Notes under the pieces: model-generated
The model's input: only the letters and a program-made list of their open reading frames with translations
Databases searched by the model: none
Told to the model about the DNA's origin: nothing
Part shown: positions 2,634 through 50,500 of the stretch, piece after piece
Numbering within the stretch: position 1 is the first letter of the stretch
How the letters are laid out: the number at the start of each line of letters is the position of its first letter
Program-made: the position numbers and the translations under genes
Assembly: GCA_026387435.1 (NCBI GenBank)
Contig: JAPLLS010000093.1
Span: 1,059 to 65,058 of the forward strand
Origin: Candidatus Omnitrophota bacterium
Lineage (GTDB): Bacteria > Omnitrophota > Gorgyraeia > Gygaellales > Profunditerraquicolaceae
Direction of reading: 5' to 3'
DNA length: 64,000 bases

Positions 2634-5477
2634 ATGAAAACCACCTGTTTTAGATCCTCATGGCCTGGATTCTGGGCGGGGATATTATTTTCACTATCAA
2701 TTGTTTTTTTTACTAAATGCTCGTTTGCTTCTGAATTGCCCCGCTACGATATCGCGGCATCCCTGGATGCTCAAAATCACAGCCTAAAAGCCAAAGAGAA
2801 GGTAGTTTTTACCAACAACTCCGATGTTCCGGTCAACGAAATATTTTTCCATATTTATCCCCACCGCCAATATACCAAAAAAGAGATAAAATTCATGTAT
2901 CAATATTCCGGGTATATTAAGGTTAATCTTTTTCCGGAAGGATTCCAAAGCGGCGATTTGAAGATCAATTCCGCTCAAAGCGCCGGCAAGCCCCTTACCT
3001 ATATAATAGAGGGCGATGATCAAACGATTTTGAAGGTTAAGCTGGATTCCGGATTGAACCCCGGGGAGTCCCGGGAGATCGAGATCGATTTTAGCCTGGA
3101 TATTCCCCATTGCTGGAACAGATTGGGATACCATCGGGATATTATTACCTTGACCCGCTGGTATCCTATTTTAAGCGTTCTGGATAAATCCGGGTGGCAT
3201 AATTATCCGTTTTACATCTATCATCAGCCGTTCTTTAGCGATGCCGCATACTATAAGCTGGAACTGACTTTACCCAAGGAGCAAAAATTAGCCTGCGGGG
3301 CTTATTTAAAAACCGAAACTTTAAATCCCGACAACACCAAAACTTTAGTTTTGGAAAATGAAGCGCCGATGCGCGATCTGGGTTTGGCTATTTCTGCGAA
3401 CTTCCAGGTTTTTTCTTTAAACCAGGACAATTTCCGGATCAATGTTTTTTATCCCCAAGGCGAGCTTAAATTTGCCCGGGAAGCTGCCAATAACGCTGCC
3501 GCGGCGATGAAATTTTACGGCCAGCGTTTTGGAGCCTATCCTTATAAAGAATTCACTATAGCCCCCAGCTACCTGGGGTTCGGCGGAGATCAGTCTTCCG
3601 GGATGATCTTTATCGATGTCCGGATGTTCCGGCTGCCAAGGTTTCTTTGCCGCTATTCTGATTTCATGATCGCCCATGAAACCGGACATCAATGGTTCTA
3701 TAACATCGTCGGCTCGGACGAATACAAAGAGATGTTTCTTGACGAAGGAGTGAATTCGTATTGGCTCCTGCGCCACCTGGAGGATAAGTACGGTTATAAC
3801 GCTCAGGTGATGGGCTTACCTAAAAGCTTGGTCTGGCTGGTTCCGAACTTTTCTTTCCGGGATTCCACCGCCAGCCGTTACATCTACCTGGCCAAGAACG
3901 GCTACGACCGGCCGGTGATCGGCGAGCTTTCCAGTTTCAAAGAACCTTCTTCGATCTTTGCCCTGGCTTATGGAAAAGGTTCTGCGTTCTTAAGCATGTT
4001 GGAAGCCCAGGTCGGCAAAGATGTCTTTGATCGGATCATGATCCATTACGCCCGGGAGTTTCGTTTCAAAAACGCCAGCCTTGACGATTTTATCCGGATT
4101 TGCCGGGAAGAATCCCGGCAAAAGCTGGATGAGTTCTTCCGCCAGTGGCTTAAGACCTCCCGGAGCTGCGATTTCGCGGTTAAATCCGTGCAGCCGGGCA
4201 AAGTTATCCTTGAAAACCGGGGCGACCTTCAAATGCCGGTAAAGACCCAAGTGGTCTTGAATGACGGGACCGAAGTCATCGATCAGTGGACGGGAGAAGA
4301 TAAATTCCGCGAGATAGCTATTCCTAAAGATAAAACAACAAAAGAAGTAAATATTGATCCGGATAAAATCATTGATTTGGACCTTGACCGCACCAATAAC
4401 CATTGGCCCAAAAAATTCAGGTTTAAACCGGTGTCGATATATTTTTTCCCCTGGGAGCTTTCAATTTTTCAAGATAGGGACGCTTACAATGCAGCGGCCG
4501 GGCCTTCTTTAGGCGGCTCTTCAATAGGCGCGGCCGCTTCAGCTCAAAAACCGTACGACCAGGTTATCCGGGCAAGTTCGGCCTATGATTTTAGCGGCAA
4601 GGCAGTGGACTCTAAACTGGGATATGAACTCGACCATATTTTGGGCCGGCATAACAGCCTGGGTTTTGAGATTTTTGATTACGATTCCAGCAAAGATGGT
4701 TTTGACGTTGCCGGAGGTAAGCTTTACTGGCGCAAGGAGCTTTGGCCGGCAGCTTACGGTATTTTCGATGTCAATGACCATGTAACTTTTTATCTAGTTA
4801 AAGACCGTAAATTAGACTCGACTGCGACTTTAAACGGCCAGGAATCCATAACCAACCTTAAGTACGCCAAAAAAGACGAGTCTATATTGGGGATAACCGG
4901 CTCGATGAACAGGTGCGGTCCTTCTTTTGACCCGGATTACGGCTGGAAATTCCTGCCTACGCAGGAATTTTCAGGACATTTTTTAGGCGGCAATCAGTCT
5001 TTTTGGCGGTCAAGCGCCGAGTTGGAAAATTATTATTTGGCCCTTCCCCGTTACCAGCAGAAGCTGGCCAGCCGGATCAAGGTTGGCCTGGGCGGACAAT
5101 TCGACAAGAATCTTTTCCAAATAGGCGGATGGGAAGGTTTGCGCGGCTACGATTTTAAGAGTATCGACGGATCGCGGATGATCCTGGGGAGCCTGGAATA
5201 CCGTTTTCCGGTCCTCGGTGACCTTAAATTTTATTTCCTGGATAATATTTTTTGTTTGAACAAGATCCAGGGCGTGGTTTTTTTTGACGCTGGCAAAGCC
5301 TGGTATTCTGATTTCTCGGCCAGGAATTTCAAGAAAGACGTCGGGTTGGGGCTGAGGATACATCTGGGCGCAGTAGGAATTCTGGAAAAAGCGGTTTTAC
5401 GCCTGGATGTTGCCCGGGCCATCAACGAGCCCAAAGAGGATCCGCATATCTGGGCGGGGATAAACCAGTCTTTTTAA
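2634..5477 (+). CDS. M1-family zinc metallopeptidase domain fused to a C-terminal Omp85/BamA-type (bacterial surface antigen) beta-barrel.
   Basis: An N-terminal signal peptide is present. The motif HETGHQWFYNIVGSDEYKEMFLDEG is HExxH-x18-E. The C-terminus GLRGYDFKS...LGSLEYRFPV...GLGLRIHLG...AGINQSF ends in an aromatic residue, as Omp85 barrels do. Confidence 0.65.
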   Translation: MKTTCFRSSWPGFWAGILFSLSIVFFTKCSFASELPRYDIAASLDAQNHSLKAKEKVVFTNNSDVPVNEIFFHIYPHRQYTKKEIKFMYQYSGYIKVNLFPEGFQSGDLKINSAQSAGKPLTYIIEGDDQTILKVKLDSGLNPGESREIEIDFSLDIPHCWNRLGYHRDIITLTRWYPILSVLDKSGWHNYPFYIYHQPFFSDAAYYKLELTLPKEQKLACGAYLKTETLNPDNTKTLVLENEAPMRDLGLAISANFQVFSLNQDNFRINVFYPQGELKFAREAANNAAAAMKFYGQRFGAYPYKEFTIAPSYLGFGGDQSSGMIFIDVRMFRLPRFLCRYSDFMIAHETGHQWFYNIVGSDEYKEMFLDEGVNSYWLLRHLEDKYGYNAQVMGLPKSLVWLVPNFSFRDSTASRYIYLAKNGYDRPVIGELSSFKEPSSIFALAYGKGSAFLSMLEAQVGKDVFDRIMIHYAREFRFKNASLDDFIRICREESRQKLDEFFRQWLKTSRSCDFAVKSVQPGKVILENRGDLQMPVKTQVVLNDGTEVIDQWTGEDKFREIAIPKDKTTKEVNIDPDKIIDLDLDRTNNHWPKKFRFKPVSIYFFPWELSIFQDRDAYNAAAGPSLGGSSIGAAASAQKPYDQVIRASSAYDFSGKAVDSKLGYELDHILGRHNSLGFEIFDYDSSKDGFDVAGGKLYWRKELWPAAYGIFDVNDHVTFYLVKDRKLDSTATLNGQESITNLKYAKKDESILGITGSMNRCGPSFDPDYGWKFLPTQEFSGHFLGGNQSFWRSSAELENYYLALPRYQQKLASRIKVGLGGQFDKNLFQIGGWEGLRGYDFKSIDGSRMILGSLEYRFPVLGDLKFYFLDNIFCLNKIQGVVFFDAGKAWYSDFSARNFKKDVGLGLRIHLGAVGILEKAVLRLDVARAINEPKEDPHIWAGINQSF

Positions 5478-9266: not shown

Positions 9267-10268
9267 GTGAAAAAAATGATGAAAATCGGACTGACTTACG
9301 ATTTAAAAACTGATTACTCGCCTAAAAAAGACGATCCGCCGGATGCTAACGCCGAATTCGACCATCCGGACACGATCAAGTACATTGCCGATGCTTTTGA
9401 GTCCCAGGGTTTTTCGGTGAAAAAAATCGGCAATGTGTCCAGCCTTTTGGAAAACCTCGACAAATTAAACGTAGATATAGTTTTTAATATATCTGAAGGG
9501 CTTATCGGCAGAAACCGGGAATCCCAGGTGCCCATACTTCTGGAGATGGCCGGTGTGCCTTTTGTGGGCGCTGACGCTTTAAGCCTGGGGATATCGTTGG
9601 ACAAGATCATGGCCAAGAAGATCTTTATGGCCGAAGGGATACCTACTCCAAGGTTCGTGGAGGTTAAGTCTGTCGACGGCCTGGATCATCTCGATCATCT
9701 GAAATTCCCTCTTTTTGTCAAGCCTCGCTTTGAAGGATCTTCCAAGGGGTTGACCGAGACTTCCCGGGTAGAGAACAAAGCTGAGCTTAAGACCCAGGTC
9801 GAGCATATACTTTCTGTTTACAAGCAGCCGGCATTGATCGAGGAGTTTATCCGCGGCGAAGAGTTCACTGTAGCTGTCATCGGAAATGACCCGCCGGAAG
9901 CTTTGCCGATCGTACAGATAAAGATAGACGGAGAGCTTAACCTTAAAGACAAGTTTTATACATTCGGCCATATCAAGGACGACAAACTGGAATACGTTTG
10001 TCCGGCACCGATAAGCGAAAGCCTCAGGAAAAAACTTATTGACTTGGCTCTGAAGACTTTTAAAGCCATCGAATGCCAGGATTTCGGCAGGGTGGATTTC
10101 CGGGTCGATGAAAAAGGCAGCCCCTATGTTTTGGAGATTAATCCTCTGCCGTCTTTGTCAACGGAAGACGTCTACAGCGTGATCTCTAAGGTGCTGGGGA
10201 TTACTTACGAGAAGATGCTCGGCAAGATCCTTAACGCCGCGCTCAAGAGGAACAATTTAATAAAATGA
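9267..10268 (+). CDS. D-alanine--D-alanine ligase-family ATP-grasp enzyme (paralog 1).
   Basis: MKIGLTYDLK...DTIKYIADAFESQGF, a central ATP-grasp region and C-terminal LEINPLPSL. The size is typical of Ddl at 333 aa. Confidence 0.7.
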   Translation: MKKMMKIGLTYDLKTDYSPKKDDPPDANAEFDHPDTIKYIADAFESQGFSVKKIGNVSSLLENLDKLNVDIVFNISEGLIGRNRESQVPILLEMAGVPFVGADALSLGISLDKIMAKKIFMAEGIPTPRFVEVKSVDGLDHLDHLKFPLFVKPRFEGSSKGLTETSRVENKAELKTQVEHILSVYKQPALIEEFIRGEEFTVAVIGNDPPEALPIVQIKIDGELNLKDKFYTFGHIKDDKLEYVCPAPISESLRKKLIDLALKTFKAIECQDFGRVDFRVDEKGSPYVLEINPLPSLSTEDVYSVISKVLGITYEKMLGKILNAALKRNNLIK

Positions 10269-11272
10269 AAGTAGCCCTGGCGTACAATTTAAAGAAAGAA
10301 GATAATACTAAGCCCGAGGATTATGCTTCGGAATTCGACTCGGAAGAAACCATCGGTGCTATAGCCGGCGCTTTGCGTTCCCGCGGCCATAATGTCGAGT
10401 ATGTAGAGGCCAGCCAGCCGAATCTTTTGGAAGCTTTTAAGAAAAGCCGCGCGGATATGGTTTTTAATATCGCCGAAGGCGAAAAGGGAAAGTACCGCGA
10501 ATCGGAAATCCCGGCGATCCTTGATTTCCTGGGCATTCCTTATACCGGCTCGGGGACGTTATCGCTGGCGGTAGCTTTGAACAAGGCCTTGACCAAGAAG
10601 ATTTTGAAAGCCGATAACATTCCCACCCCGGCTTTTCAGCTTTTTACGACCGGAAAAGAAGTATTGGATCCCCAATTAAAATTTCCTCTGATCATTAAAC
10701 CGAATTTTGAAGGCTCGGCCAAGGGGATCAACCGTTCCAATGTAGTGGAAAACCAGAAAGATCTTTACCTTAAGGCCAGGGAGCTTATTGATGTATATCA
10801 GCAGGAGGCTCTAGTTGAGGAGTTTATCGAAGGCAAAGAGCTTACCGTCGGGATCTTGGAAAACGGGACTTGCAACGTACTGCCGATTTTAGAGATTGAT
10901 TTTGAATCTGCCAAGAAGTCCGGGGAATTTTTCTATTCCTGGAGGATGAAAGAGTTCCAGGGGGACGATGTGCAGGGGCTGACTCCGACATTTCATTGTC
11001 CGGCCCGCCTGGATAGCCAGACGGAGAAGCTGGTCAAGGATACCGCCGTAAAAACTCACCGGGCGGTCGGCTGTTACGGTATTTCGCGCACCGACATCCG
11101 GTTAAGTAAAAACAATATCCCTTATGTTCTGGAGATCAATCCTTTGCCCGGGCTTAATCCCAAGGAATCTAATTTCCCGATCATGGCTTATGCTGCGGGG
11201 ATGAAATATGATGATATAATCGAGGCGATCCTTACCAGCGCCTATCAAAAAAGAAAGGCGGAAAATGGCTAA
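10265..11272 (+). CDS. D-alanine--D-alanine ligase-family ATP-grasp enzyme (paralog 2).
   Basis: It has the same architecture as the upstream gene, with MKVALAYNLKKED... and C-terminal LEINPLPGL. Its start overlaps the preceding stop by 4 nt. Confidence 0.7.
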   Translation: MKVALAYNLKKEDNTKPEDYASEFDSEETIGAIAGALRSRGHNVEYVEASQPNLLEAFKKSRADMVFNIAEGEKGKYRESEIPAILDFLGIPYTGSGTLSLAVALNKALTKKILKADNIPTPAFQLFTTGKEVLDPQLKFPLIIKPNFEGSAKGINRSNVVENQKDLYLKARELIDVYQQEALVEEFIEGKELTVGILENGTCNVLPILEIDFESAKKSGEFFYSWRMKEFQGDDVQGLTPTFHCPARLDSQTEKLVKDTAVKTHRAVGCYGISRTDIRLSKNNIPYVLEINPLPGLNPKESNFPIMAYAAGMKYDDIIEAILTSAYQKRKAENG

Positions 11273-12449
11273 TACGGCGGTAACCGAAAATCAAAAGTTA
11301 CTCTCCGAAGCTGTTATTGCGCCGCGGCCGGCTAGAAAGTCCCGCGATTACCAGCAGATCAGTCTTTATAAAGAAGTTAACCCGCTGGACTGGGAAGACT
11401 GGCGCTGGCAGATGAGAAATCGGATCACTAAGCTCGATCAGATATCTCAAGTTGTTAATTTGACCAAGGAAGAAGAAGAGGGTATTAAAAACGCCAAGGG
11501 GCATATGGCCATGGCCGTCACCCCTTACTGGGCGACTTTACTGGATCCGGAAGACCCCGCCTGTCCGATCCGGCGGCAATGTATTCCTACGCAAAACGAA
11601 TCCAATATCAGCCCCTATGAGATGGCTGACCCTTGCGGGGAGGACAGCGATTCTCCGGCGCCGCATTTGGTGCACAGGTATCCCGACCGGGTTTTGCTTT
11701 TGGCTACCGAGTCCTGCGCTATGTATTGCCGCCATTGCACCAGAAGGCGGCTGGTCGGCCACGCGGAAAAAGTGGATAATTCCCCGGACCGCTGTGATGC
11801 GGCCATTGATTACATCCGCTCTAACAAAAAGATCCGTGATGTTCTTATTTCCGGCGGTGACCCGCTTACGCTGGAAGACGAAGTGCTGGAAGATCTGTTG
11901 AAGAAATTACGCACTATCCCTCATTTGGAATTCCTGCGTTTAGGCACCAGGGTGCCGGTGACCCTTCCTCAGCGGATCACCGAAAGCCTGGTTTCCATGC
12001 TTAAAAAATACTCCCCGCTTTGGATGAGCATCCATTTCAACCATCCCAAGGAGATAACCCGGCGCACCAAGATTGCCTGCGAAATGCTCGCCGACTCCGG
12101 GATTCCGCTGGGCAGCCAGACCGTACTCTTGAAAGGCATTAATGACCGGCCCAGCACCATGCGCAGGCTCATGCATGACCTTTTGAAGATCAGGGTCAGG
12201 CCTTATTACATTTACCAATGCGACTTAGTCCGGGGAACGCAGCATTTCCGCACTCCGGTCGAAGCCGGAATAAATATAATCGAAAAATTGCGCGGCCATA
12301 CCACCGGCTACGGGGTGCCGACCTATGTCATTGACGCTCCCGGCGGAGGCGGCAAGATCCCGATTAATCCTAATTACGTAGTTTCCCAGGGCAAAGGCAA
12401 ATACGTTTTGCGCAACTACGAAGGAAAGGTTTACACTTACCTGGAGTAA
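11265..12449 (+). CDS. kamA: KamA-family radical SAM enzyme (lysine 2,3-aminomutase type).
   Basis: CAMYCRHCTRR is the CxxxCxxC radical SAM cluster motif. LISGGDPL and a C-terminal Cys-rich tail are typical of KamA/EpmB. Confidence 0.75.
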   Translation: MANTAVTENQKLLSEAVIAPRPARKSRDYQQISLYKEVNPLDWEDWRWQMRNRITKLDQISQVVNLTKEEEEGIKNAKGHMAMAVTPYWATLLDPEDPACPIRRQCIPTQNESNISPYEMADPCGEDSDSPAPHLVHRYPDRVLLLATESCAMYCRHCTRRRLVGHAEKVDNSPDRCDAAIDYIRSNKKIRDVLISGGDPLTLEDEVLEDLLKKLRTIPHLEFLRLGTRVPVTLPQRITESLVSMLKKYSPLWMSIHFNHPKEITRRTKIACEMLADSGIPLGSQTVLLKGINDRPSTMRRLMHDLLKIRVRPYYIYQCDLVRGTQHFRTPVEAGINIIEKLRGHTTGYGVPTYVIDAPGGGGKIPINPNYVVSQGKGKYVLRNYEGKVYTYLE

Positions 12450-12459
12450 GGATTTTCCC

Positions 12460-12488
12460 TTGACCGTCCTAAAATTTCCCCCTATAAT
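12460..12488 (+). promoter_or_regulatory. Sigma70-like promoter upstream of the EF-G paralog.
   Basis: TTGACC (12460-12465), a 17-nt spacer, then TATAAT (12483-12488). An AAAGGAG Shine-Dalgarno sequence lies just before ATG 12641. Confidence 0.5.
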
Positions 12489-12640
12489 AACTTTATCGGC
12501 TTTCCCAATCCCTTTTAATCCGGATTGAGTTTAGTTCCGAGCTTAAAACACCTCTAAAATCTATTGTTAGGATATTTGGCTTAATTCCTTAACCCGCCTT
12601 TGGGTTTTTAATACTTTCTTAAAGATAAAGGAGTATAAAA

Positions 12641-14575
12641 ATGGATGCCAAAAACAAAAGAAGTGTTATTTTATTAGGCCATGCTCAATCGGGAAAAACC
12701 ACTCTTGCGGAAAGTATCCTCTTTCGCTGCAAAGCTATTTCGCGCAAAGGCTCGACAGCCGAAGGCAACACCACCAGCGACTACAACTGGGACGAAATAG
12801 AGCGAAAATCTTCTATTAACGCCGGGTTTATGTTTTGCGATTATCAGGATATCCGTATCCAGCTGGTGGATACCCCGGGTTTCGCTGATTTTTACGCGGA
12901 GGTTCTTTCCGGGGTGCGTGCGGTGGATAACGCGATCGTGGTTATCGACGGATCAAGCGGAGTGGAAGTGGGGACGGAGAAAGTCTGGGAGCTGTTGGAG
13001 GAAGCCGGGATCCCCAGGATAGTTTTTGTCAATAAAATAGATAAAGAAGGCGTAGACAAAGATAAGATAGTCGAGGACATCCGGAAATCGCTTTCTCCTC
13101 ACGCGGTAGTTTTGAATTCCAGCGCCCTGGAAGAATTGATGGAGCCTGTCGCTGAAAGCGACGACATGCTTCTGGAAAAATATCTAGCCGCGGGCAAGCT
13201 TACTTTGGAAGAAATCAACAGCGGCCTGCATAAAGCGGTTGCCAGCGCCAAGGTATTCCCCGTTCTTTTCGGCTCGGCGCTTACGGACAGCGGTCTTGAT
13301 GAGTTCTTGAAGGCGATCAAGGACGATCTGGTTTCTCCGGATGAACGGCCGAACATGCAGGTTAAAGACGGCGAAGTAAAATCTCAGGAAGCGGCGCCTT
13401 TTTCGGGGTTTGTATTTAAAAGTATATTTGACCCTTATGTCGGGCAGTTGAGTTTGGTGCGGGTATTTTCCGGCAAGCTTGCCGGCAATACGACTTTTTA
13501 CAACGTTAATCAGAAGAACGTGGAGCGTTTCGGCCAGCTGTATTTTCTCCAGGGAAAAGAACAGCGATTGGTGGAAGCGGCTACTTGCGGGGATATCGTA
13601 GCTATTCCTAAATTAAAATTTACTCATACCTCGGATACTTTGGCGGAGGCGGCTCACCCGGTGGTTTTTAATCCCATAGAATTCCCCGAGGGGATGATGT
13701 CGGCTTCGGTAAAACCCCGCACCCGTCAGGACGAAGAAAAAATTTCCCAGGCTTTGGCTAAATTGGTAGCCGAGGATCCTACGTTCAGGGAGAAAGTCGA
13801 CCCGCAGACCAAAGAAATGATCGTTTCCGGGCTGGGGGATCTGCATTTGCACGTGATGATCAACCGGCTCAAGAAACGTTTTAATGTGGAAGTTGAACTC
13901 GGCAAGCCCAAAGTACCTTACAAAGAAACTATTACCCGCTCAACTAAGATCCAGGGTAAATTCAAGCGCCAGTCGGGAGGCAGGGGCCAGTACGGTGACG
14001 TCTGGATTGAGGTGCACCCTCTGGAGCACGGGAAAGGTTTTGATTTCGTGGATAAGGTCGTCGGAGGAGCGATCCCGCGTAACTTCATTCCTTCGGCGGA
14101 AAAAGGCATAGTCAAAGCTATGTCGGAAGGGGTAATTGCCGGCTATCCTGTCGTAGATATGCAGGTAATCCTTTTTGACGGCTCTTACCACGATGTTGAT
14201 TCTTCGGATATGGCTTTTCAGATCGCCGGGTCCATGGCTTTGAAAAAAGCGGTTTCTGCCGCCGGCCCGGTATTGTTGGAACCGGTCATGGAAATAGAAG
14301 TTTTCATTCCCGAAGAGTACCTGGGGGCGGTTTCCGGAGATTTGAATTCCCGCAGGGGGCGCACTCTGGGAATGGAAGCAAAAGGAAGAACGCAGGCTTT
14401 AAGGGCCAGCGTTCCTTTATCGGAAATGTTTACCTACGCCAGCGACTTGCGCTCGTTGACGCAGGGAAAAGGAAGCTTCACCATGAAATTTTCCCATTAT
14501 GAGCAAGTTCCGGGTAAGATGGCGCAACCGGTTATAGCGCATTATCAGGAGCATCATAAAGCGGAAGAAGAGTAA
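12641..14575 (+). CDS. Elongation factor G-family GTPase paralog with a degenerate catalytic motif.
   Basis: G1 is GHAQSGKT and G4 is NKID, both intact. G3 reads DTPGF instead of the canonical DxPGH. EF-G domains III-V are recognisable (RGQYGDVWIEV...). At 644 aa it is shorter than canonical EF-G. Confidence 0.7.
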   Translation: MDAKNKRSVILLGHAQSGKTTLAESILFRCKAISRKGSTAEGNTTSDYNWDEIERKSSINAGFMFCDYQDIRIQLVDTPGFADFYAEVLSGVRAVDNAIVVIDGSSGVEVGTEKVWELLEEAGIPRIVFVNKIDKEGVDKDKIVEDIRKSLSPHAVVLNSSALEELMEPVAESDDMLLEKYLAAGKLTLEEINSGLHKAVASAKVFPVLFGSALTDSGLDEFLKAIKDDLVSPDERPNMQVKDGEVKSQEAAPFSGFVFKSIFDPYVGQLSLVRVFSGKLAGNTTFYNVNQKNVERFGQLYFLQGKEQRLVEAATCGDIVAIPKLKFTHTSDTLAEAAHPVVFNPIEFPEGMMSASVKPRTRQDEEKISQALAKLVAEDPTFREKVDPQTKEMIVSGLGDLHLHVMINRLKKRFNVEVELGKPKVPYKETITRSTKIQGKFKRQSGGRGQYGDVWIEVHPLEHGKGFDFVDKVVGGAIPRNFIPSAEKGIVKAMSEGVIAGYPVVDMQVILFDGSYHDVDSSDMAFQIAGSMALKKAVSAAGPVLLEPVMEIEVFIPEEYLGAVSGDLNSRRGRTLGMEAKGRTQALRASVPLSEMFTYASDLRSLTQGKGSFTMKFSHYEQVPGKMAQPVIAHYQEHHKAEEE

Positions 14576-14714
14576 AAAGTCACAAGTGCTCCCTCGGCAA
14601 GCTTTCGCGGATTTTGTTAAAATCCGCTCAGCCTCGGGATAAATTCGGCCCAATAACTTATGTCGCACTTCGTGCTCCATAAGTTATGGCCTCATTTAAA
14701 GGAGATGTGGATAA

Positions 14715-15419
14715 ATGAAAATAGGAATTTTAGGGACAGATATTTTTACTCCGGGTAAGGCTAATCTGGTAGATGAGCGAGTCAAGACTCTCAAGGCCAT
14801 GTTTAATTCCGCTAAAGAGGTTTATATCCAGGCGGATATAATCACTGACCAGGAAAAACTGGTCGAAGCCGACGGGATAATCGCCCCGGAAAACGCGAAG
14901 CTGGATTTGATCGTCCACGACATGGAGTTTGTGGAAACCAGGCTTAGCCGTGTCGAAGATCCTGCCGAGAAAACGCTTTTGACTAAATTCAAGGACCAGC
15001 TGGATAAAGAAAAGCTGCTTTGCGAACAGGTAATAAGCGAAACGGAAAAAGGCCTTATTTCCGGATATTCGCTCTGGAGCATACGGCCGGTTTATCTGAC
15101 CAAGCCCGGGGAATTGGAAGACAAGAATAAACTGCTTCTTAATGGCTATGCCCATTTCGGCTACATCAGCTTTTTCACCGCCGGGGATAAAGATTCCCAC
15201 GCTTGGAGCATAAAAAAAGGAGTTAGCGCCTGGGAAGCTGCCGGGGCGATCCACTCGGATATCCAAAATGGTTTTATCCGGGCAGAGGTGACCAGCTTTC
15301 AGGATTTGATCGCCGACGGAAGTTTGTCCAAGGCCCGGGCTAACAACCATATCCGCCTGGAGATGAAAGAGTATGTGGTCCAGGATGGGGATTATATGGT
15401 TATCCGCACCAATAAATAA
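14715..15419 (+). CDS. YchF/Ola1-like protein lacking a functional P-loop (DUF933/TGS-containing remnant).
   Basis: The C-terminus GFIRAEVTSFQDLIADGS...MKEYVVQDGDYMVIRTNK aligns with the YchF TGS domain. The N-terminus GILGTDIFTPGKA is a degenerate Walker A. The protein is about 130 aa shorter than YchF. Confidence 0.55.
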   Translation: MKIGILGTDIFTPGKANLVDERVKTLKAMFNSAKEVYIQADIITDQEKLVEADGIIAPENAKLDLIVHDMEFVETRLSRVEDPAEKTLLTKFKDQLDKEKLLCEQVISETEKGLISGYSLWSIRPVYLTKPGELEDKNKLLLNGYAHFGYISFFTAGDKDSHAWSIKKGVSAWEAAGAIHSDIQNGFIRAEVTSFQDLIADGSLSKARANNHIRLEMKEYVVQDGDYMVIRTNK

Positions 15420-43375: not shown

Positions 43376-43551
43376 TTGTATCCATCCTTGGGGCGGGTAA
43401 GAAGAAACCGCTTTCAAATTCCGCCCTTGCCCGTCTTGAAAACTACTCTATATATTATATACTTATTATATAAGGTTGAGAGACTCTAGTGCCTTCCAGC
43501 TGGTTACTGGGAGGTCTCTTTTTCTCCACAAAACAAAAAGTTTGTAAAAGT

Positions 43552-44580
43552 ATGATCAATCGGATTTTAGCATTTCTAATTTCGTTTTGTCTTATCTTCG
43601 AGCAGACCGGGTTTGCCCAGCTGGCTATTCCTATAGGCATACCCGGATATTTGAGTTTGCTGGCTCCGGTCGCCGATAAATTCCGGCCGATCCATCTGCG
43701 TTCCATTGATCTTAGCTCCGGTAATGGTAATTTCGAACTCATCCTGGACAAAGGCGACCTCAAGGATATCCAGCCCCGCCAGCTGGAAGAAACGACCAAA
43801 GAACTCTACCGATATTTCCAAATAGGTTTAGCTTTACCGAACAAGTATTTCTGGGTCAACCTCAGGCCGGATTCCCCTGATAGCATGATCGAGCCTTTGC
43901 TGGCCAAGACCGATCTGGGCAAGGTGATGCTAGAAGCCGATCTGCAGCTGAAAAAAGACCTGGCCAATTTTACATCTCTCCAGACTCCGGAAGGCAAACT
44001 TTACTGGGACAAACTTTACTCTAAAGCCAGCGAGCTTTACAACCAGCAGGATATCCAAATTCCCACCTTGACCCGTCCCTGGATCGTTCCCGGAGAAGTG
44101 GTGATTCGCTCTAGCCAAACCGGGGCTTTTGTTTACAAGGCTACGCTTAAGGTAATGCTGGAGCAGGACTATATCAAAGATTCCCCGGCGTATAATTTTA
44201 ACGACCCCCGGCTAAAAGAACTCAATGGTTATTCCTCTCAGCTTATCCGCGAACTGATCATTCCCAAGCTGACCCGGGAAGTCAATTCTTCCCGGCGCTA
44301 CTCGCAATTGCGCCAGGTTTATTATTCGTTGATCCTGGCCCAGTGGTTTAAGTCGAAATCTTTTGGAGTGGCTATGGTCGAAGGTCGGGTGGCGATGGCA
44401 CAAAAGACCGATAGCCAGGACTTGAGCGGGTTGACTTCCAAAACCAGCTGGTCAAAAGACACTTATTTCCAGGCCTACAAGAAGTCGTTCCAGAAAGGCG
44501 AATACAACCAGCAGGAGCAGGTGAATTCGCTCAATGGAATATCGATCCGGCAATACACCAGCGGCGGGATCCAGATAATG
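43552..44580 (+). repeat. About 1.03 kb direct repeat (copy 1): the shared 5' module of the two giant genes.
   Basis: About 88% nucleotide identity to 58476-59504. One example of several long identical runs: cggtcgggtggcgatggcacaaaagaccgatagccaggacttgagcgggttgacttccaaaaccagctggtcaaaagacacttatt occurs in both copies. Confidence 0.85.
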
Positions 44581-47500
44581 GATCAACTGAAGATCCAGGA
44601 GATCCCGGGCAGTGTCGCTGACTTCTTCACGGGTAACCAGGAATACTTTGCCAGGTTGTCGATGAATTCCCTGACCGGTGATGTGAATATCTTACCGGCA
44701 AGTCCTGTTTTAAAATCCGGCGGAGCACAGGAGTTTGACGGCGGGAAAAAGATAAGTCAGGAATCGGAGAAGGCAAAAGACGCAAAGCGAGGTAATGATC
44801 AGGCTTTTTCCTCGGTGCGCGAAAAGTTCATGTTGTTGACCGAGGCCGAAAAGGAGGAGCTTAATCGCAGGCTTAGAGAGCTGCACCAGGATTCACTCAG
44901 TCAGACGAGTCTCAATAAAGAAGAAAGCGATCGGGAATTCTATACCATCACTATCCGCGAGCAAAGGAGATTCATCGCGGTGTTCCTGGATAAATTCTGC
45001 GCGGAGATCGATCTGGAAGTCGCGTTAAGAAAGGAAGAAGCTGCTGTCCGCACTCTCGGTTATTTATTCTCGAAGATCGCGGGGTTGTTCGCCAAATATC
45101 TATCAAAGAAGAAGGAAATAGGAAAGAACAGGCTGGAAGCGGTCAAGCGCCGGGAGATTTTCGACCGGGCCTGGCAGGAAGCAAGCCGGATCTATCTGGA
45201 CATGTTCCCGCAGCCGGAGAAAAGAACTTGGAACGCGCCTGCCAATGTGCCGGCTATCTACGCCGAGGCATACGACAAATTGCAGAGTTGTCTGACAACA
45301 GACATCCCGGCTTTATTCCTTTATTCGCTTGAGTCGCGGGACAGCCTGGACAGGGCGTTTGAGCTTTATCAACGGAATAATCCTCAGGTCATTGTTGAGC
45401 GGGTCATTTGTACGCCGGACAGCGACCGCATGCAGTTGATCGGCGCGGACATGCCGGTTAGCGCGCAGGATCGGGAATTCTCCAAAGAAAAGATACGTTT
45501 CCAGAAAGGCGTATTATACCGGTTGGTAGACCAGGCCAAGGCGGATCCTTCCAAGATTTTCGTGCTTCGATTAGAGCAGGTCGAGGCTTTGTCGGCCAAG
45601 GTCTGGGTGCAGTTGAACCAGTTCTTGCTTACGGGAGAGTTGTGGATACCCGAAACCAACGAAAAACTTATTCTTCCCGACAACCTTAAGATCGTAGCTT
45701 CCCTTTCCAGCGGCCTAAGGGACAGCGCCTTTTACGACCGCTTCCTGCGTAAGCAGTTGAATATCCCGGACAGGAAAAGCCTGGTTGATTACGCTGTGAC
45801 CAGGTTCGGACTGCCTCAGGTGTTGATAGAGGAATATTGTAATCTGCAGGCGGATAACAGCGACAAGATCACCATGGGGCAGCTTTTAGTGCTGTTTTCA
45901 TATATGAAGGGGCGGCTGGCTGATGAAAATATCAGCGCGAATTCCCAACGCGGCAGGGCGATCATCACTGAAGAACGGGATCTGTTTTTCAGATCGATGG
46001 CCAGGGGCAAGGAGAATATTTTGCTGGCAATGGGCAAAAAAGAGGAAGAACCCGGCGGAGGAAACGATCCGGATACGGAAATGCTTAATGAAGTATTGGA
46101 ATTCTCGACGGAGAACCGATTGCAAATTACAGCTGATTTCACTCCTGAAGAGATAGGGGAGATTGTACTCAAATATCCCGCTGACTGGAAGAATAAACTG
46201 AAAGAGTTGAAGCTTATAAAAGAAGAAGAACGGGATCTGTTTTTCCTGGCCCGTCGGAGCAATGAGGGTCCTCTAAAAGGAATTAATCCGGACGACGAAA
46301 CAGCAATGATGGTCCTGGAGTACGGCGGCAAGATTGGCGAAGTTTATTCCCGGATGGGAGAACTTCGCACTTATGCTGGTCTGCACAAGATAGACCTTTC
46401 ACTTGAAGAAGCCCGTGTGATCGCGATATTAGCTCCTGACCAGATAGAGGGGATTCTGAAAGGCCGGGAGGATGTTAGTGAGGTTTTGATGCTGGTTGAG
46501 ATGCGTATGGCGTTCCAGTCCGTAATAACCATTGTCCCGGGAGTAAAGAACGTTTTGGTGTTCGAGCCCAAAACCGGCCGGTTCATGGCGGATGGAGTGG
46601 AATTGCCTATTCGCTCTGAACTCAAGGACAAGATCGCCGAGGCGATGAAAACACGGGATATGGAGCAGGCGATCAGGGAAGTGTTCAAGGCTGAGCTGGG
46701 TTTGACTTTGACCCAGGACGTAGCGCGCACGCTGAGCGCTATTTCCCGTAATTACCGCTACGGCACCCGGGTCCTGCGGCTGGAAGGCCCGACCGGGACC
46801 GGCAAGACGTTCATGGCCCAGGCTTTGGCCAAGATGCTGGACATTCCTTTTTACGGAGAGCCGTTCCACGCCGCCAGCAAACAGTCGAAACTTCTGGGAG
46901 CGCTCAAGCCCGATGAGAAAGCGGATTATTACATGGATTCGGACACGCCGTTTCTGCAAATACTGGAAAAGGGCGGGGTTGTCGCGCTTTCCGAGCTTAA
47001 TGCGGCGGTAAAAGATGATAAAGCCCGCTTCGGCTGGCTGATGGTGCCTTTGGCTCGGGGTGACGAAAAGTTCATCCTTAACCAGTATCCTGACGGTAAA
47101 GAAACGACGCGGGAACTGACCCGCCATCCGGATTCAATGGTGATCATCGATATCAACCCCACGGAATCATACGAGGCCCGCGGCCAACTTCCGGGTCCGC
47201 TTAATGAAGTTACTCCCGCGGTCTGGGTGGAAGGCAGGTTCGAGTCTCAAGAACTCGAGGATATTTCCGGCGATTATCTCGCCGGCCTCGCGCAGGAAGA
47301 TCTTGACTATTACCGCGGAAAGATCGCCGGCCTGCATTTCGCGATACAACAGGAGCTGGCGGATGAGGATGGCCCGTGGCGGCAGGAGGAAAAAGAGAAG
47401 CGCGAGAAATTCGGAGGCGTAGATATTACCCAGATGCTTAAGGCAGGGCGTATGTCGCCGATGAAGGCAATGAAGGTCTTCGGTCCAATGTTCGGGGTTA

Positions 47501-50500
47501 AGATGGAAGGGCATGATGAGGAAATGGCGATACAAAAGACGCTGGCAATAGACGCGCCGCATATCATCAGCCTGCGCGAGCTCAAGCGCGCCTGCCGGAT
47601 GATCGCGGAGAATAACGGGAAGCTCAGCCGGGAGCAGAACCTGATCGAAGCGGTGATGTTTTATTACGGTTTCGCTTTCAAGGAGATCGGCGATCAAGAG
47701 CGGGTTGAGCGGTTTATCCGCAGGATCCTCGCCCCTTCGGCTCCGAAGTGGGAACCGCCGATCGCCATCGAGAAATTCGTCGCGTCAGGACACAGGGTGA
47801 TATGTCTGGTGCTGGATCCCGAAGGCGCAGACATGCAGGAATTGCGGAAGGCAATGAAGAATAACGAGATCGACAAGCTAAATATTGAACGGATAAATGG
47901 CTGGGTGCCCCTTGAAGTAGCCAAACAGGGTAAAATTGTCAACGCTGAAAAGGAATATCCGCGGCTTAGAGCCACTATTGAACAATTATTCGAGAATGAT
48001 TCTGAGTCTTTCGAGAAATCGATAGGATTTTTGATCACCTTAAAGAAGCAGAATAAACCTGATCAGGGAGTTGTTGTTAGCAATGAACTCGATCAGAAGC
48101 TCCAGGAGCTAAAATCGGCAGCGGAACAATGGGCCGGTTCAGGAAACAAGTTAGTTAAGCCCTGGGAGATGTTAGATATGATCGAAAAGGAGCAGCAGCG
48201 CAAGTCCGGAACAACGGTTGAAGTAATGGCGAAAGTCCTGGCAGGTAAGCCGCCGAGCATTTCGAAAGAATTTGCAAAAAAACTGCTGGAATTGCGGTCA
48301 AGGCCAGCGCGCACATCCGGAGTGGCTGAAGAAATCGAGAAAGAACTGAAGGAAACGCCGCCGCCGTTTGTTAGTTCGGGAACCAATGATATCCCGCTGC
48401 GTACAAGGTCCGTGAGAGAAGATATCAGGGATTGGGGGACCAATCCTGACCGGCCGATTGTTGCAAGGCCAGACATGAAATCAGATGAGTACGGGGTAAT
48501 GGTAATGGATGTTGATGGTACTTTAATCGGGTCGCGCTTATCGGGCGTGGCAGAAGATATTGAAAAAGAGTTAATTAAACTGATGCGTTCAGCTGTTGAA
48601 CCTGCTACCGGTGTTCCAGTGGATTGGAATCAAATAATGCTGAAATATTTGAAGGAGCCGGAGCCTCCGCTGGCGGAGTTCCAGGATAAGGGGTTGCAGT
48701 ATTATCTCGACTATTCGCTATTCAGGACGAAGGAGCCGACCCTGTTATCCATGGACGCGGTGAATGATCCTATGGCTCAGTTGCGCTCTGCAGCGGAAAA
48801 ACGCGGCCGGGTGGTTATCGAGAAGCTCAATACCAACCTGTTCACCGACGATTTCACCCTTTTCGGCGGATATATCCCGGACAGCGAGCGGGAAGCAGAA
48901 ACCGGCGAAGCCCAGCTGCGCTTGGCTGACGGAGCGATGTCGCGTTTCATCGCTCAGGCGGCCAAAGCCCGGGAAGAGGATAAAAACCTGCCTGAGGCAG
49001 AACGCCGGATATTCGTCCTGGCTTTCGAGAATTACCATTACCTGCGGCCGCAGATCGCGGTGGCGCTTAACGTGATCCTTCAGGAACGGGTGTATTATCC
49101 TCCGACAAGCACAGACAGGATAGAACTGCCGGATAACCTGCGTTTCTTCGCCACAGCGACCAATGAGGCGGAATTCAACCTGTCGCTGGCCGAGCAGTCA
49201 CGCTGGGCGAGGATATTCTTCCATAAGCCTAACGGGCCTGCTCCGCAGGCAGATAATGATCTGTACAGCTCAGCTGATCCTGGATTGGCGGGTATGCTGC
49301 CGACTGTAGCCGGCGGAGCAATGCCATACGATAACGATTCGATTAGCGCAAAGGATCTGATGAGAATGGCGAGAGTAGATGTAGAAGGTATGTTGGTAAA
49401 CAAGCCCTCACGGCCGCCTTCTGACAGCGGTTCAATGACCACCGCCGGCGGTGCTATGCTGGATATCCTCACCTCAGCGTCTGAGCTGGCTGAAAAGTAT
49501 TTAAAGGATGCAGGTATTAAGATCAAGATCGAGGATAATGGTAAAATTACTTTGCCGGAGTTGAGGGAGATGAAATACAAGAGGCTAGGTTCCCTGGAAG
49601 AAAAACTTAAGGGGGCGGATGATAAGGAAATCTCCAGCTTTGCTCAAGATGACCTTGTGCCGCGTTTCACCGCCGACCCAAAGCTTGAGCAGTTGATCGA
49701 GGACTATTGCCGGGAATTTCCTGCGGTGGACAAGGAGGAGGTCCGGGTCGCGGCAGAAGCAGTTGCCAAAAAGAAGGGCCCGGGTGAGGAGCCGGTTACT
49801 ATAAAAGAAGTACAGTATACCAGCGCGGAAGAATTGCGCAACGCCTACAAGATTGAACCTTTCGAGCGCCAGCACGAGCCATTGGCAGAAGAGGAGTTGA
49901 TGGTCCCCACTAATGAACTTCTGCGCCAGGAAAGCATGATGGTCAACGCCATGAACCGGGGCCAGGTGATCATCTGCGAAGGCGAGCCGGGCGGAGGAAA
50001 AACGGACATGGGCATCGACATCGCCGAACGCCTCGGACTTGATTCCTATATTTATTCCGGCCATGCCGGAGCGCATTTGCGCGATTTTATCGGCGCCTAT
50101 ACCAAAGACGAGAAAGGCAGGTTCGTTCTGACCTGCCTGCCGGATAAGGACGGACATTTCAAGGTGCCGTTCTTGGAATTCTACACTCACGGCGGAGTTT
50201 ATACTTTCGACGAAGGCGCGCTGGGTAAATATCCCCAGGCTTTGATCAGCTGGCTGACCGGGATCGCCCGCGGGGAGCAGGAGTTGGTGATCAATGAGCA
50301 TCCCGGCCAGGAGCCATTGCGGCTCAAGCGGCATAAACATTTCCATATCGTCATTACTACTAACCCTGTTGATGAGACTCCGGGAAGAGAATCGATCTCC
50401 GTTGAAGTCCTCAAAGCGGCGCGCCGGATCTGGGTGGAGAACAAACTTAGCGACGCCTCGTACCAGGCGATCCTGGACCGTTTTTACGATTTTTACTCCC

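Follow-up and report, generated by a model that had tools for sequence, protein, structure and literature searches.

A histidine-less elongation factor G paralog of the EFG II class in Omnitrophota, encoded upstream of a P-loop-less YchF derivative

What becomes of an elongation factor G whose switch II histidine is missing? The question is raised by an intact open reading frame (ATG start, TAA stop) in the 64-kb window, by which we mean the whole stretch of DNA of a Candidatus Omnitrophota MAG analysed here, whose 644-aa product has the overall plan of EF-G and carries a phenylalanine in place of that residue. All five EF-G domains are recognized by Pfam (GTP_EFTU, EF-G_D2, EFG_III, EFG_IV and EFG_C), and an AF2 model (pLDDT 84.9) superposes on ribosome-bound EF-G, 8DMF and 9K0Z with TM scores of 0.85-0.91. 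The start codon is preceded at 8 nt by a ribosome-binding site (AAGGAG) and at ~150 nt by a candidate sigma-70-like promoter (Table 1); an Rfam search of positions 12350-14800 returned zero matches, even at E <= 1.

Table 1. Features of the EF-G-like gene and its surroundings, in positions of the window
Feature	Position	Strand	Remarks
Sigma-70-like promoter match	12460..12488	+	TTGACC-17-TATAAT, 11/12; consensus match only
EFG II-class (EF-G2-like) elongation factor G paralog	12641..14575	+	644 aa, NCBI MCX5708625.1
G1 P-loop	12677..12700	+	GHAQSGKT, residues 13-20
G2 / switch I	12800..12817	+	ERKSSI where EF-G has ERGITI
G3 / switch II	12869..12883	+	DTPGF, residues 77-81
G4	13031..13042	+	NKID, guanine-specificity motif, residues 131-134
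G' remnant	13115..13255	+	residues 159-205; reduced to three helices, without the beta half
G5	13271..13282	+	GSAL, residues 211-214
Domains II and III	13397..13906	+	
Domain IV	13907..14263	+	
Domain IV tip loop	13958-13996	+	KFKRQSGGRGQYG, canonical
Domain IV tip loop	14180-14206	+	GSYHDVDSS, holds His517, canonical
Domain V	14270..14527	+	
Structured spacer	14576..14714	+	140 nt, two hairpins, without U-tract; specific to the lineage of this gene
Mini-YchF	14715..15419	+	234 aa

An altered GTPase centre and the class it marks

Alignment of the protein with Thermus thermophilus EF-G by HMMER places Phe81 (codon TTC, 12881-12883) exactly on the histidine of DTPGHVDF, bearing out the original prediction of an EF-G-family paralog with its catalytic histidine replaced. 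A histidine elsewhere in switch II would have undone that reading; residues 14-154 contain none, so none stands elsewhere in switch I or II. Among the 120 closest homologs (64-100% identity), the last position of G3 is F or Y, never H, in every variant listed, and the two aromatic residues interchange freely across the family. A pseudogene or sequencing error is ruled out, because the gene is conserved across this family and its reading frame is intact.

Three further changes, absent from the original prediction, were seen alongside the lost histidine: substitution of the P-loop aspartate by Gln16, a switch I reading RKSSI, and the loss of ~48 residues from G'. The aspartate normally binds a monovalent cation, and the literature describes the loss of monovalent-cation ligands in EFG II proteins. 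Next to Gln16, Ala15 stands for an isoleucine of the hydrophobic gate; in switch I, the change from RGITI to RKSSI replaces Gly by Lys, Ile by Ser and Thr by Ser58, and with Ile to Ala and Ile to Ser both gate isoleucines are gone. Ser58, at the position of the Mg-coordinating threonine, does not vary across the family. Residue 16 is Gln in at least 90% of the core Omnitrophota clade and otherwise His, whereas the same position is variable in other EFG II proteins. The protein lacks all elements of the sarcin-ricin-loop-activated GTPase centre: the catalytic histidine, the P-loop aspartate, both gate isoleucines and the switch I glycine. Loss of the G' subdomain, raised as a possibility by the original prediction, is partial. 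Its beta half is deleted, leaving ~48 residues fewer than in T. thermophilus EF-G by alignment and a span of 70 residues (positions 140-210) against a typical ~110, but three helices remain, and the acidic G' helix ESDDxLLEKYL is still present.

This combination has been described before. Margus et al. (2011) listed as hallmarks of the EFG II class Gly16 and Leu25 (1WDT numbering), a G2 of the form xxxSx, a G3 conserved only as DxPG, G' regions that mostly carry deletions, and a basic domain IV loop I (Lys471/472 in 1WDT). In the Omnitrophota protein the P-loop reads GHAQSGKTTL, opening with Gly13 where EFG I has Ala and followed by Leu after GKTT; G2 is RKSSI, with Ser replacing the Mg-binding Thr; G3 is DTPGF, keeping only DxPG; G' is shortened by deletion; the five-domain architecture is present in both Pfam and the AF2 model; and domain IV loop I is KFKRQ, a basic loop that is an EFG II trait, compared with KYKKQ in 1WDT and KF[TAV]RQ in EF-Gs of the str operon.

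The wider sampling agrees. Within a set of 151 nearest sequences (the query and 150 representatives at 50% identity), the switch II histidine is missing from 142, the fifth position of G3 being Y in 74, F in 32 and H in 9. A neighbour-joining tree of 175 sequences, built without an outgroup, separates canonical from histidine-less proteins in 30/30 bootstrap replicates, with 1WDT on the histidine-less side, and gathers the Omnitrophota sequences, ours among them, into a single clade (30/30). NF009381 is the top NCBIfam model for both our protein and 1WDT, whereas a str-operon EF-G tops on the canonical equivalog TIGR00484 with 1246.6 bits, a model whose cut-off of 659.4 our protein misses with 646.8 bits. 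It also falls below the cut-offs of NF009377 ('elongation factor G-like protein EF-G2'; 571 bits versus 890) and NF058620 ('EFG2_Bacteroid'; 502 bits versus 1000), as does 1WDT, from a partial sequence, for NF009377 (479 bits); these two models are narrow equivalogs that do not span the whole EFG II class. For the G domain alone the top PDB match is 1WDT, at 140 bits against 136-138 for canonical EF-Gs, a margin small enough that we do not rely on it for the assignment. A recent, independent loss of histidine from an EFG I ancestor is ruled out by the tree and the complete set of EFG II signatures.

The gene is a conserved, real member in Omnitrophota of the already described EFG II (EF-G2) class; its lost histidine, altered P-loop and switch I, and G' deletion are the signature of that class and are not peculiar to this gene. 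Because the class as a whole lacks the catalytic histidine, the absence is ordinary for the family and does not mark a new type of factor. The premise from which the original prediction started, that no translational GTPase does without the switch II histidine, fails on a whole subfamily for which the trait was already on record, and a missing histidine in an EFG II protein should therefore not be flagged as exceptional. The main value of the analysis is corrective: EF-G paralogs of this class, which is very large and widespread, normally lack this histidine, a distinction that the public annotation 'elongation factor G' hides.

Retained features, a conserved partner and what the protein may do

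The nucleotide-binding motifs singled out at the start, GHAQSGKT and NKID, are indeed kept, within a fuller set of GTP- and Mg-binding residues (GxxxxGKT, Ser58, DxxG, NKxD and SAL); Lys132 and Asp134 show no variation across the family, and Asn131 is at least 90% conserved. The tip loops of domain IV, SGGRGQYG and GSYHDVDSS, the latter including His517, are likewise invariant in the family and the same as in canonical EF-G, and domains IV and V share 59-60% identity with T. thermophilus EF-G. The G domain is under purifying selection, with a mean pairwise identity of 69% across the family, and the protein is better conserved than is usual for an EFG II member.

Since neither the GTP-binding residues nor the tip of domain IV varies across the family, we favour a GTP-binding translocase with little or no hydrolysis. 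We give a probability of about 60% to the reading that the gene encodes an EFG II-class paralog that would translocate slowly, with little or no ribosome-stimulated GTP hydrolysis, in a cell that also has a canonical fusA. Such a protein would bind GTP, dock at the ribosomal A site in the manner of EF-G, and promote slow translocation as Bacteroides EF-G2 does, serving perhaps as an alternative translocase in energy-limited cells. A role 'rather than a translocase', as first suggested, is not favoured, given tip loops that are invariant and match canonical EF-G. The accompanying forecast, that ribosome-stimulated hydrolysis would be absent, holds in part: it fits EF-G2 of Bacteroides thetaiotaomicron and of Mycobacterium smegmatis (in mycobacterial EF-G1 the mutation H88Y abolishes GTPase activity, according to the M. 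smegmatis EF-G2 preprint), but not T. thermophilus EF-G-2, which has Tyr at the histidine position and for which both GTP hydrolysis and support of poly(Phe) synthesis have been reported. For E. coli EF-G H92A, multi-turnover translocation still occurs. The Omnitrophota clade amounts to a clean natural experiment, in which GTP-binding residues and tip are invariant while half of G' and the whole ribosome-activated GTPase centre have been lost, and this combination suits it well to tests of how far translocation needs GTP hydrolysis.

The main rival reading, possible though on the unlikely side, is a stress-specific factor like mycobacterial EF-G2, which would bind nucleotide and the ribosome, possibly the non-rotated 70S or the 50S subunit, and regulate or protect ribosomes without translocation or recycling. 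M. smegmatis EF-G2 shares the change from His to an aromatic residue and is described in a preprint as a stress factor with minimal ribosome-dependent GTPase activity that binds non-ratcheted 70S, does not recycle ribosomes and cannot substitute for EF-G1; from its example a non-translocation role is possible for the Omnitrophota protein, whose model fits 9K0Z (TMq 0.87) and whose operon partner derives from a ribosome-binding protein, YchF, for which a 50S-bound structure has been solved (8KIE). Against this, domain IV of M. smegmatis EF-G2 is mispositioned (preprint) whereas the tip loops here, His517 included, are canonical, and the identity of domains IV and V to T. thermophilus EF-G fits a retained A-site function.

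That partner is the degenerate YchF-like gene that the original prediction had noted immediately downstream, and it is a YchF derivative without a P-loop, made up of a reduced G-core, a coiled coil and a TGS-like C domain. Its downstream position is conserved in 44/52 Omnitrophota loci, co-oriented with the EF-G2-like gene and often only 0-10 nt away, forming an apparent operon from which the two proteins are probably co-expressed. We know of no earlier description of an EF-G2 paired with a YchF that lacks its nucleotide site; what is new here, modestly, is the shortened G' together with the apparent operon with a P-loop-less mini-YchF.

The pairing could point to a dedicated low-energy mode of translation, the phylum being known for very small cells with high activity per cell. 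A stronger version, which we regard as doubtful, is that the histidine-less EF-G2 and the P-loop-less mini-YchF form a co-evolving ribosome-binding module that runs or preserves translation without NTP hydrolysis. If so, both partners would have come from NTPases with dismantled catalytic sites, in ultra-small, energy-limited, host-dependent cells.

It is improbable, by our estimate, that the protein instead remains active as both translocase and ribosome-dependent GTPase in the manner of T. thermophilus EF-G-2, which would give the cell a second EF-G with full activity that uses alternative catalysis, for example by residue 16. The activity reported for the Thermus protein, despite its DAPGY motif, argues for this, as do the retention of the acidic G' helix and the conservation of Gln16 (else His) in the core clade at a position that varies elsewhere in EFG II. 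The near-invariant, clade-specific Gln/His16 could be a relocated catalytic residue, in which case hydrolysis would be independent of the sarcin-ricin loop. Yet phenylalanine has no group to position or activate water and interchanges with tyrosine in the family, neither monovalent-cation ligand and neither gate isoleucine is left, G' is without its beta half, and H88Y in EF-G1 abolishes GTPase activity.

Genomic setting and the canonical fusA gene

The gene order at the locus is KamA-like, EF-G-like, mini-YchF, purH, and not rpsL-rpsG-fusA-tuf. S12, S7 or EF-Tu was found near a query-type gene in 0 of ~55 Omnitrophota loci, while these probes do recover the str operon at canonical genes of Firmicutes. 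Complete Omnitrophota chromosomes, according to a 2026 preprint that gives support at phylum level, contain an S12-S7-EF-G-EF-Tu operon. Because genes of the query type never lie in the str operon and such a separate operon is reported in Omnitrophota, the gene is most likely a paralog in a cell that also has a canonical fusA.

The tblastn comparison of the protein with the 64-kb window matched only the gene itself. A scan of contigs gave only histidine-less orthologs and canonical Firmicutes genes, with no canonical Omnitrophota copy because its patterns were specific to the query. Probes for S12, S7, EF-Tu, RpoB/C, S10, L2, L11 and NusG (tblastn and motif) found no seed in ~1 Mb of Omnitrophota DNA, and the best canonical representative recovered was Dictyoglomus EF-G. 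As the homolog searches were not aimed at a canonical copy, finding none does not argue that the genome lacks one. In Seymour et al. 2023, the supplements record only the presence or absence of K02355 and no copy numbers.

It is very unlikely that this is the sole EF-G of the organism, carrying out all translocation and recycling without a catalytic histidine, even though the window holds no second fusA-like gene, no canonical Omnitrophota EF-G was retrieved by searches not designed for one, and conservation is unusually high for an EFG II member. In the 2011 survey of Margus, every genome with an EFG II gene had another EF-G as well and any EF-G gene occurring singly was EFG I, and the str-type operon of complete chromosomes, which the query-type gene never adjoins, points the same way. 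A Tet(M)/Tet(O)-like protection protein, as the original prediction had entertained, or another non-EF-G translational GTPase (BipA, LepA, RF3) is effectively refuted by family scores, for all the shared domain plan and a length close to that of Tet(M): tet_protect (NF012153) gives 334.4 bits against a cut-off of 775, the TypA, LepA and RF3 models lie far below their cut-offs, and PDB scores are 578 bits to EF-G versus ~220 bits to TetM.

Comparison with known systems

Tet(M) and Tet(O) resemble the Omnitrophota protein in being EF-G-derived, of similar length (Tet(M) has 639 aa) and reduced in G'; they differ in that the latter is far below their family cut-offs and has a domain IV tip of EF-G type. 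Canonical EF-G (EFG I; T. thermophilus 1EFG/1DAR) is the best overall PDB match, at 578 bits, and shares the tip loops, but reads AHIDAGKT, ERGITI and DTPGHxDF where our protein reads GHAQSGKT, ERKSSI and DTPGFADF, with a shortened G'.

The archetype of the class, T. thermophilus EF-G-2 (1WDT/2DY1; Margus et al. 2011; Connell et al. 2007), has the same five-domain fold, a GHAxSGKTTL P-loop that has lost the aspartate, Y/F for the switch II histidine and a basic K-K/R domain IV loop, and is likewise encoded outside the str operon; its motifs are GHAGSGKTTL and DAPGYGDF. Identity is only ~35-39%, its G' is longer by ~49 residues, it has Thr in G2 (HRTTV) and Gly in the P-loop where ours has Ser and Gln16, and its reported GTP hydrolysis and lack of any known pairing with a YchF-like gene set it further apart.

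M. smegmatis EF-G2 (9K0Z/9K10), present alongside canonical EF-G1, has similarly lost its histidine to an aromatic residue (His88 to Tyr98) together with the catalytic contacts of switch I and the P-loop. It lacks conservation of G4 and G5, whereas NKxD and GSA are retained here; its domain IV loops, too, are mispositioned (preprint) where our tip is canonical; and the PDB score of our protein is 418 bits to it against 578 to T. thermophilus EF-G.

EF-G2 of B. thetaiotaomicron (7UVP/8DMF) is matched by our model at TMq 0.89. It is not an ortholog, as the NF058620 score indicates; it has 718 aa with insertions of its own, and the Bacteroidetes G2 motif is YGYSV (Margus 2011) where ours is RKSSI. 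According to papers that cite Han et al. (2023), this protein is induced by carbon starvation and translocates without GTP hydrolysis, and it is the functional model that we favour for the Omnitrophota paralog.

The remodelled GTPase centre

The EF-G-family gene that the original prediction described as having lost its catalytic histidine is real: in a HMMER alignment with Thermus thermophilus EF-G, Phe81 occupies the column of the histidine in DTPGHVDF, and relocation of that residue within switch II is excluded, no histidine lying between residues 14 and 154. All five EF-G domains are present (Pfam), the nucleotide-binding and Mg-binding residues are kept, and the tip of domain IV is canonical. 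The same alignment reveals changes in the P-loop, switch I and G′ that were missing from that prediction: the P-loop reads GHAQSGKT rather than AHIDAGKT, with Gln16 in place of Asp and Ala15 in place of the gate Ile; switch I reads RKSSI rather than RGITI; and G′ is ~48 residues shorter. At the level of sequence, all components of the ribosome-activated GTPase centre are replaced, namely the catalytic His, the P-loop Asp, the switch I Gly and two gate isoleucines; the P-loop Asp and switch I Gly are monovalent-cation ligands (Atkinson 2015).

Features of the window discussed in the text
Feature	Position	Strand	Description
Peptidase_M1/Omp85 protein	2634-5477	+	947 aa; Peptidase_M1 domain, C-terminal Omp85 beta-barrel domain
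Ligase and aminomutase genes	9267-12449	+	Two Ddl-like ATP-grasp ligases and a KamA-family aminomutase, directly 5′ of EF-G-like gene
EF-G-like gene	12641-14575	+	644 aa; ATG start, TAA stop; AAGGAG ribosome-binding site 8 nt upstream
Gln16 codon	12686-12688		P-loop
Phe81 codon	12881-12883		TTC
Spacer	14576-14714		~140 nt between EF-G-like gene and mini-YchF; two stable hairpins
mini-YchF	14715-15419	+	234 aa; YchF_C-only; DUF933 annotation
Giant ORF	43489-58470	+	4993 aa; several dynein/MoxR-like AAA matches (AAA_5, AAA_7, AAA_22), C-terminal methyltransferase domain

An identical protein is on record from a 74,006-bp contig of a Candidatus Omnitrophota MAG (NCBI MCX5708625.1), and the best 120 homologs (64-100% identity, nearly all 641-652 aa) carry GHA[QH]SGKT in G1, ERKSSI in G2 and, in every variant listed, D[TASV]PG[FY] in G3, never His. 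Judged by its conservation, the G domain is remodelled and maintained rather than decaying, because an alignment of 65 sequences retains invariant residues in the P-loop and switch I (Gly13, Gly18, Lys19, Thr20, Ser58, Ile59) and in G3-G5 (Asp77, Pro79, Gly80, Lys132, Asp134, Gly211, Ser212), and mean pairwise identity across the family is 69% in this domain; domain IV, at 79%, keeps Gly446, Gly447, Gly449 to Gly452, His517 and Val519 to Ser522. Gln16 is itself near invariant in the core Omnitrophota clade, with occasional His; other EFG II proteins have a variable Gly, Ser or Asn at this position of the cation-binding Asp.

Class membership and relation to canonical EF-G

EFG II, the paralogous class defined by Margus et al. 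(2011), is marked by a P-loop with Gly first and Leu following GKTT, relaxation of RGITI in G2 to xxxSx with Ser for Thr, G3 conservation limited to DxPG, deletions within G′ and a domain IV loop with extra positive charge; its genes lie outside the str operon, always with another EF-G present too (Margus et al. 2011). Eight defining features were tested and all eight are found in the EF-G-like protein. The 150 nearest clusters were taken from an exhaustive HMMER search over 1.84 billion representatives; among these and the query (n = 151), position 5 of G3 is Tyr in 74, Phe in 32 and His in 9, the other 36 having a different non-His residue. Of the genes at 80 genome loci, all those with S12, S7 and EF-Tu alongside carry AHIDAGKTTTT, ERGITI, DTPGHVDF and KF[TAV]RQ, while those outside the str operon, in Omnitrophota and other phyla, are all His-less, with a Ser-type G2 and K[YF]K[KR]Q. 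In a neighbour-joining tree of 175 sequences, to which T. thermophilus EF-G and EF-G-2 were added from PDB alignments, canonical and His-less proteins separate in 30/30 bootstraps, with EF-G-2 on the His-less side, and the Omnitrophota genes form a single clade (again 30/30). NF009381 is the best NCBIfam model for the query, T. thermophilus EF-G-2, a Deferribacter paralog and the copy on a complete Omnitrophota chromosome, and TIGR00484 that for the Bacillus str-operon EF-G. These scores agree with the tree and the motifs, and the EF-G-like protein belongs to the known EFG II class. Orthology to Bacteroides EF-G2 or to the narrow NCBI EF-G2 equivalog was rejected on NCBIfam scores; identity as a Tet protein was likewise rejected.

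No other fusA-like gene is present in the window. Neither S12, S7 nor EF-Tu occurs within 10 kb of the His-less gene at any of ~55 Omnitrophota-type loci, the identical probes detecting the str operon at Firmicutes control genes, and complete Omnitrophota chromosomes are reported to carry S12, S7, EF-G, EF-Tu, S10 and L3 contiguously in that order (2026 preprint, 176 genomes). The His-less gene, never found in that context, should therefore differ from the str-operon EF-G, a conclusion drawn at the level of the phylum and from the literature. Two representatives from the homology search, P0235 (1040 aa) and P0266 (1016 aa), are canonical DTPGH EF-Gs with N-terminal extensions of several hundred residues; these could be genuine fusions, or gene calls that have been merged, perhaps S12, S7 and EF-G.

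Reduction of G′ and the mini-YchF neighbourhood

In its AF2 model (pLDDT 84.9) the protein has the usual extended shape of EF-G, matching ribosome-bound EF-G, 1WDT, B. theta EF-G2 (8DMF) and M. smegmatis EF-G2 (9K0Z) with TMq 0.85-0.91. The G′ subdomain lacks its beta half and consists of three helices (160-173, 175-184, 189-201). Within the Omnitrophota clade the measured G′ span shrinks from 102 to 85 to 70 residues. Deep-branching subclades with the same His-less protein (loci L042, L044, L045, L048; L047, L049; L055, L056), among them the copy on complete chromosome OY759724.1, have a longer G′ (102 residues, measured span) or no mini-YchF neighbour, which suggests that within the phylum G′ was reduced in steps and the YchF link was gained.

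The same succession of genes recurs across Omnitrophota: two Ddl-like ATP-grasp ligases, a KamA-family radical SAM aminomutase, the EF-G-like gene and mini-YchF, followed by purH, folC, mnmE and folE. mini-YchF lies directly 3′ of the EF-G-like gene in 44/52 loci (median gap ~35 nt, some with zero gap or overlap), the pairing holding to ~50% EF-G identity; the remaining eight loci belong to deep-branching subclades. The two genes form an apparent operon. A sigma-70-like promoter match (11/12, to consensus only) lies ~150 nt 5′ of the EF-G-like start codon. The intergenic spacer folds with an MFE of -47.1 kcal/mol (z = -3.9), contains no U-tract and has no match in an Rfam search; it looks like a lineage-specific insertion, as most related genomes hold just 0-60 nt here.

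mini-YchF proteins make up a well-conserved Omnitrophota family of almost constant length: the 120 matches listed are all 232-235 aa, a single 229-aa protein apart, and show 63-92% identity. Sequence similarity to YchF covers the C-terminal TGS-like domain only, and the AF2 model (pLDDT 88.7) matches full-length YchF/OLA1, including 50S-bound 8KIE, with TMq 0.74-0.83, comprising a reduced G-core, coiled coil and TGS domain without a P-loop: the site reads GILGTDIFTPGKAN, against GIVGLPNVGKST in YchF.

The KamA-family protein, 5′ of the EF-G-like gene in 32/42 loci, scores 525.2 bits with lys_2_3_AblA (cut-off 525.4). Together with the ligases it may serve a beta-amino-acid or peptide pathway; an involvement in translation like that of EpmB or RimK would be speculation. 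Elsewhere in the window, the Peptidase_M1/Omp85 protein is kept at the same position in locus L001, and the giant ORF belongs among the very large proteins that are a known feature of Omnitrophota. The Omnitrophota-type gene and synteny also occur in many public MAG records named 'uncultured Planctomycetales/Planctomycetia', 'Deltaproteobacteria' or 'Margulisiibacteriota' (L007, L010, L011, L015, L016, L020, L021, L030, L032 and others), probably taxonomic mislabels or mis-binned contigs.

Mechanism and known EF-G2 systems

The original interpretation, a GTP-binding protein deprived of ribosome-stimulated hydrolysis and perhaps not a translocase, is supported in part. In the literature, mycobacterial EF-G1 loses its GTPase activity on mutation H88Y, and the ribosome-dependent GTPase of M. 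smegmatis EF-G2 (Tyr98) is minimal; E. coli EF-G H92A keeps multiple-turnover translocation with slow release, and B. theta EF-G2 is starvation-induced and translocates without hydrolysis. We infer, with a probability of about 0.6, that the EF-G-like protein would bind GTP and translocate slowly, hydrolysing little or none of it, beside a canonical EF-G in the cell. The main rival, a translocation-inactive stress factor, seems unlikely. An active GTPase using another catalytic residue is less likely again; GTP hydrolysis and poly(Phe) synthesis are reported for T. thermophilus EF-G-2, and the obvious candidate residue is the clade-specific Gln/His16, which may be a catalytic residue that has moved or one that contacts the gamma-phosphate.

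The top PDB match of the G domain alone is T. thermophilus EF-G-2 (1WDT/2DY1), which bears the same signature as the query (GHAGSGKTTL, DAPGYGDF). Replacement of the catalytic His by Tyr in EF-G2 has already been described explicitly, and the divergent EFGII G domain was recorded in 2011 and 2015; specific to the present clade are the shortened G′, Gln16 in the P-loop and the apparent operon with mini-YchF.
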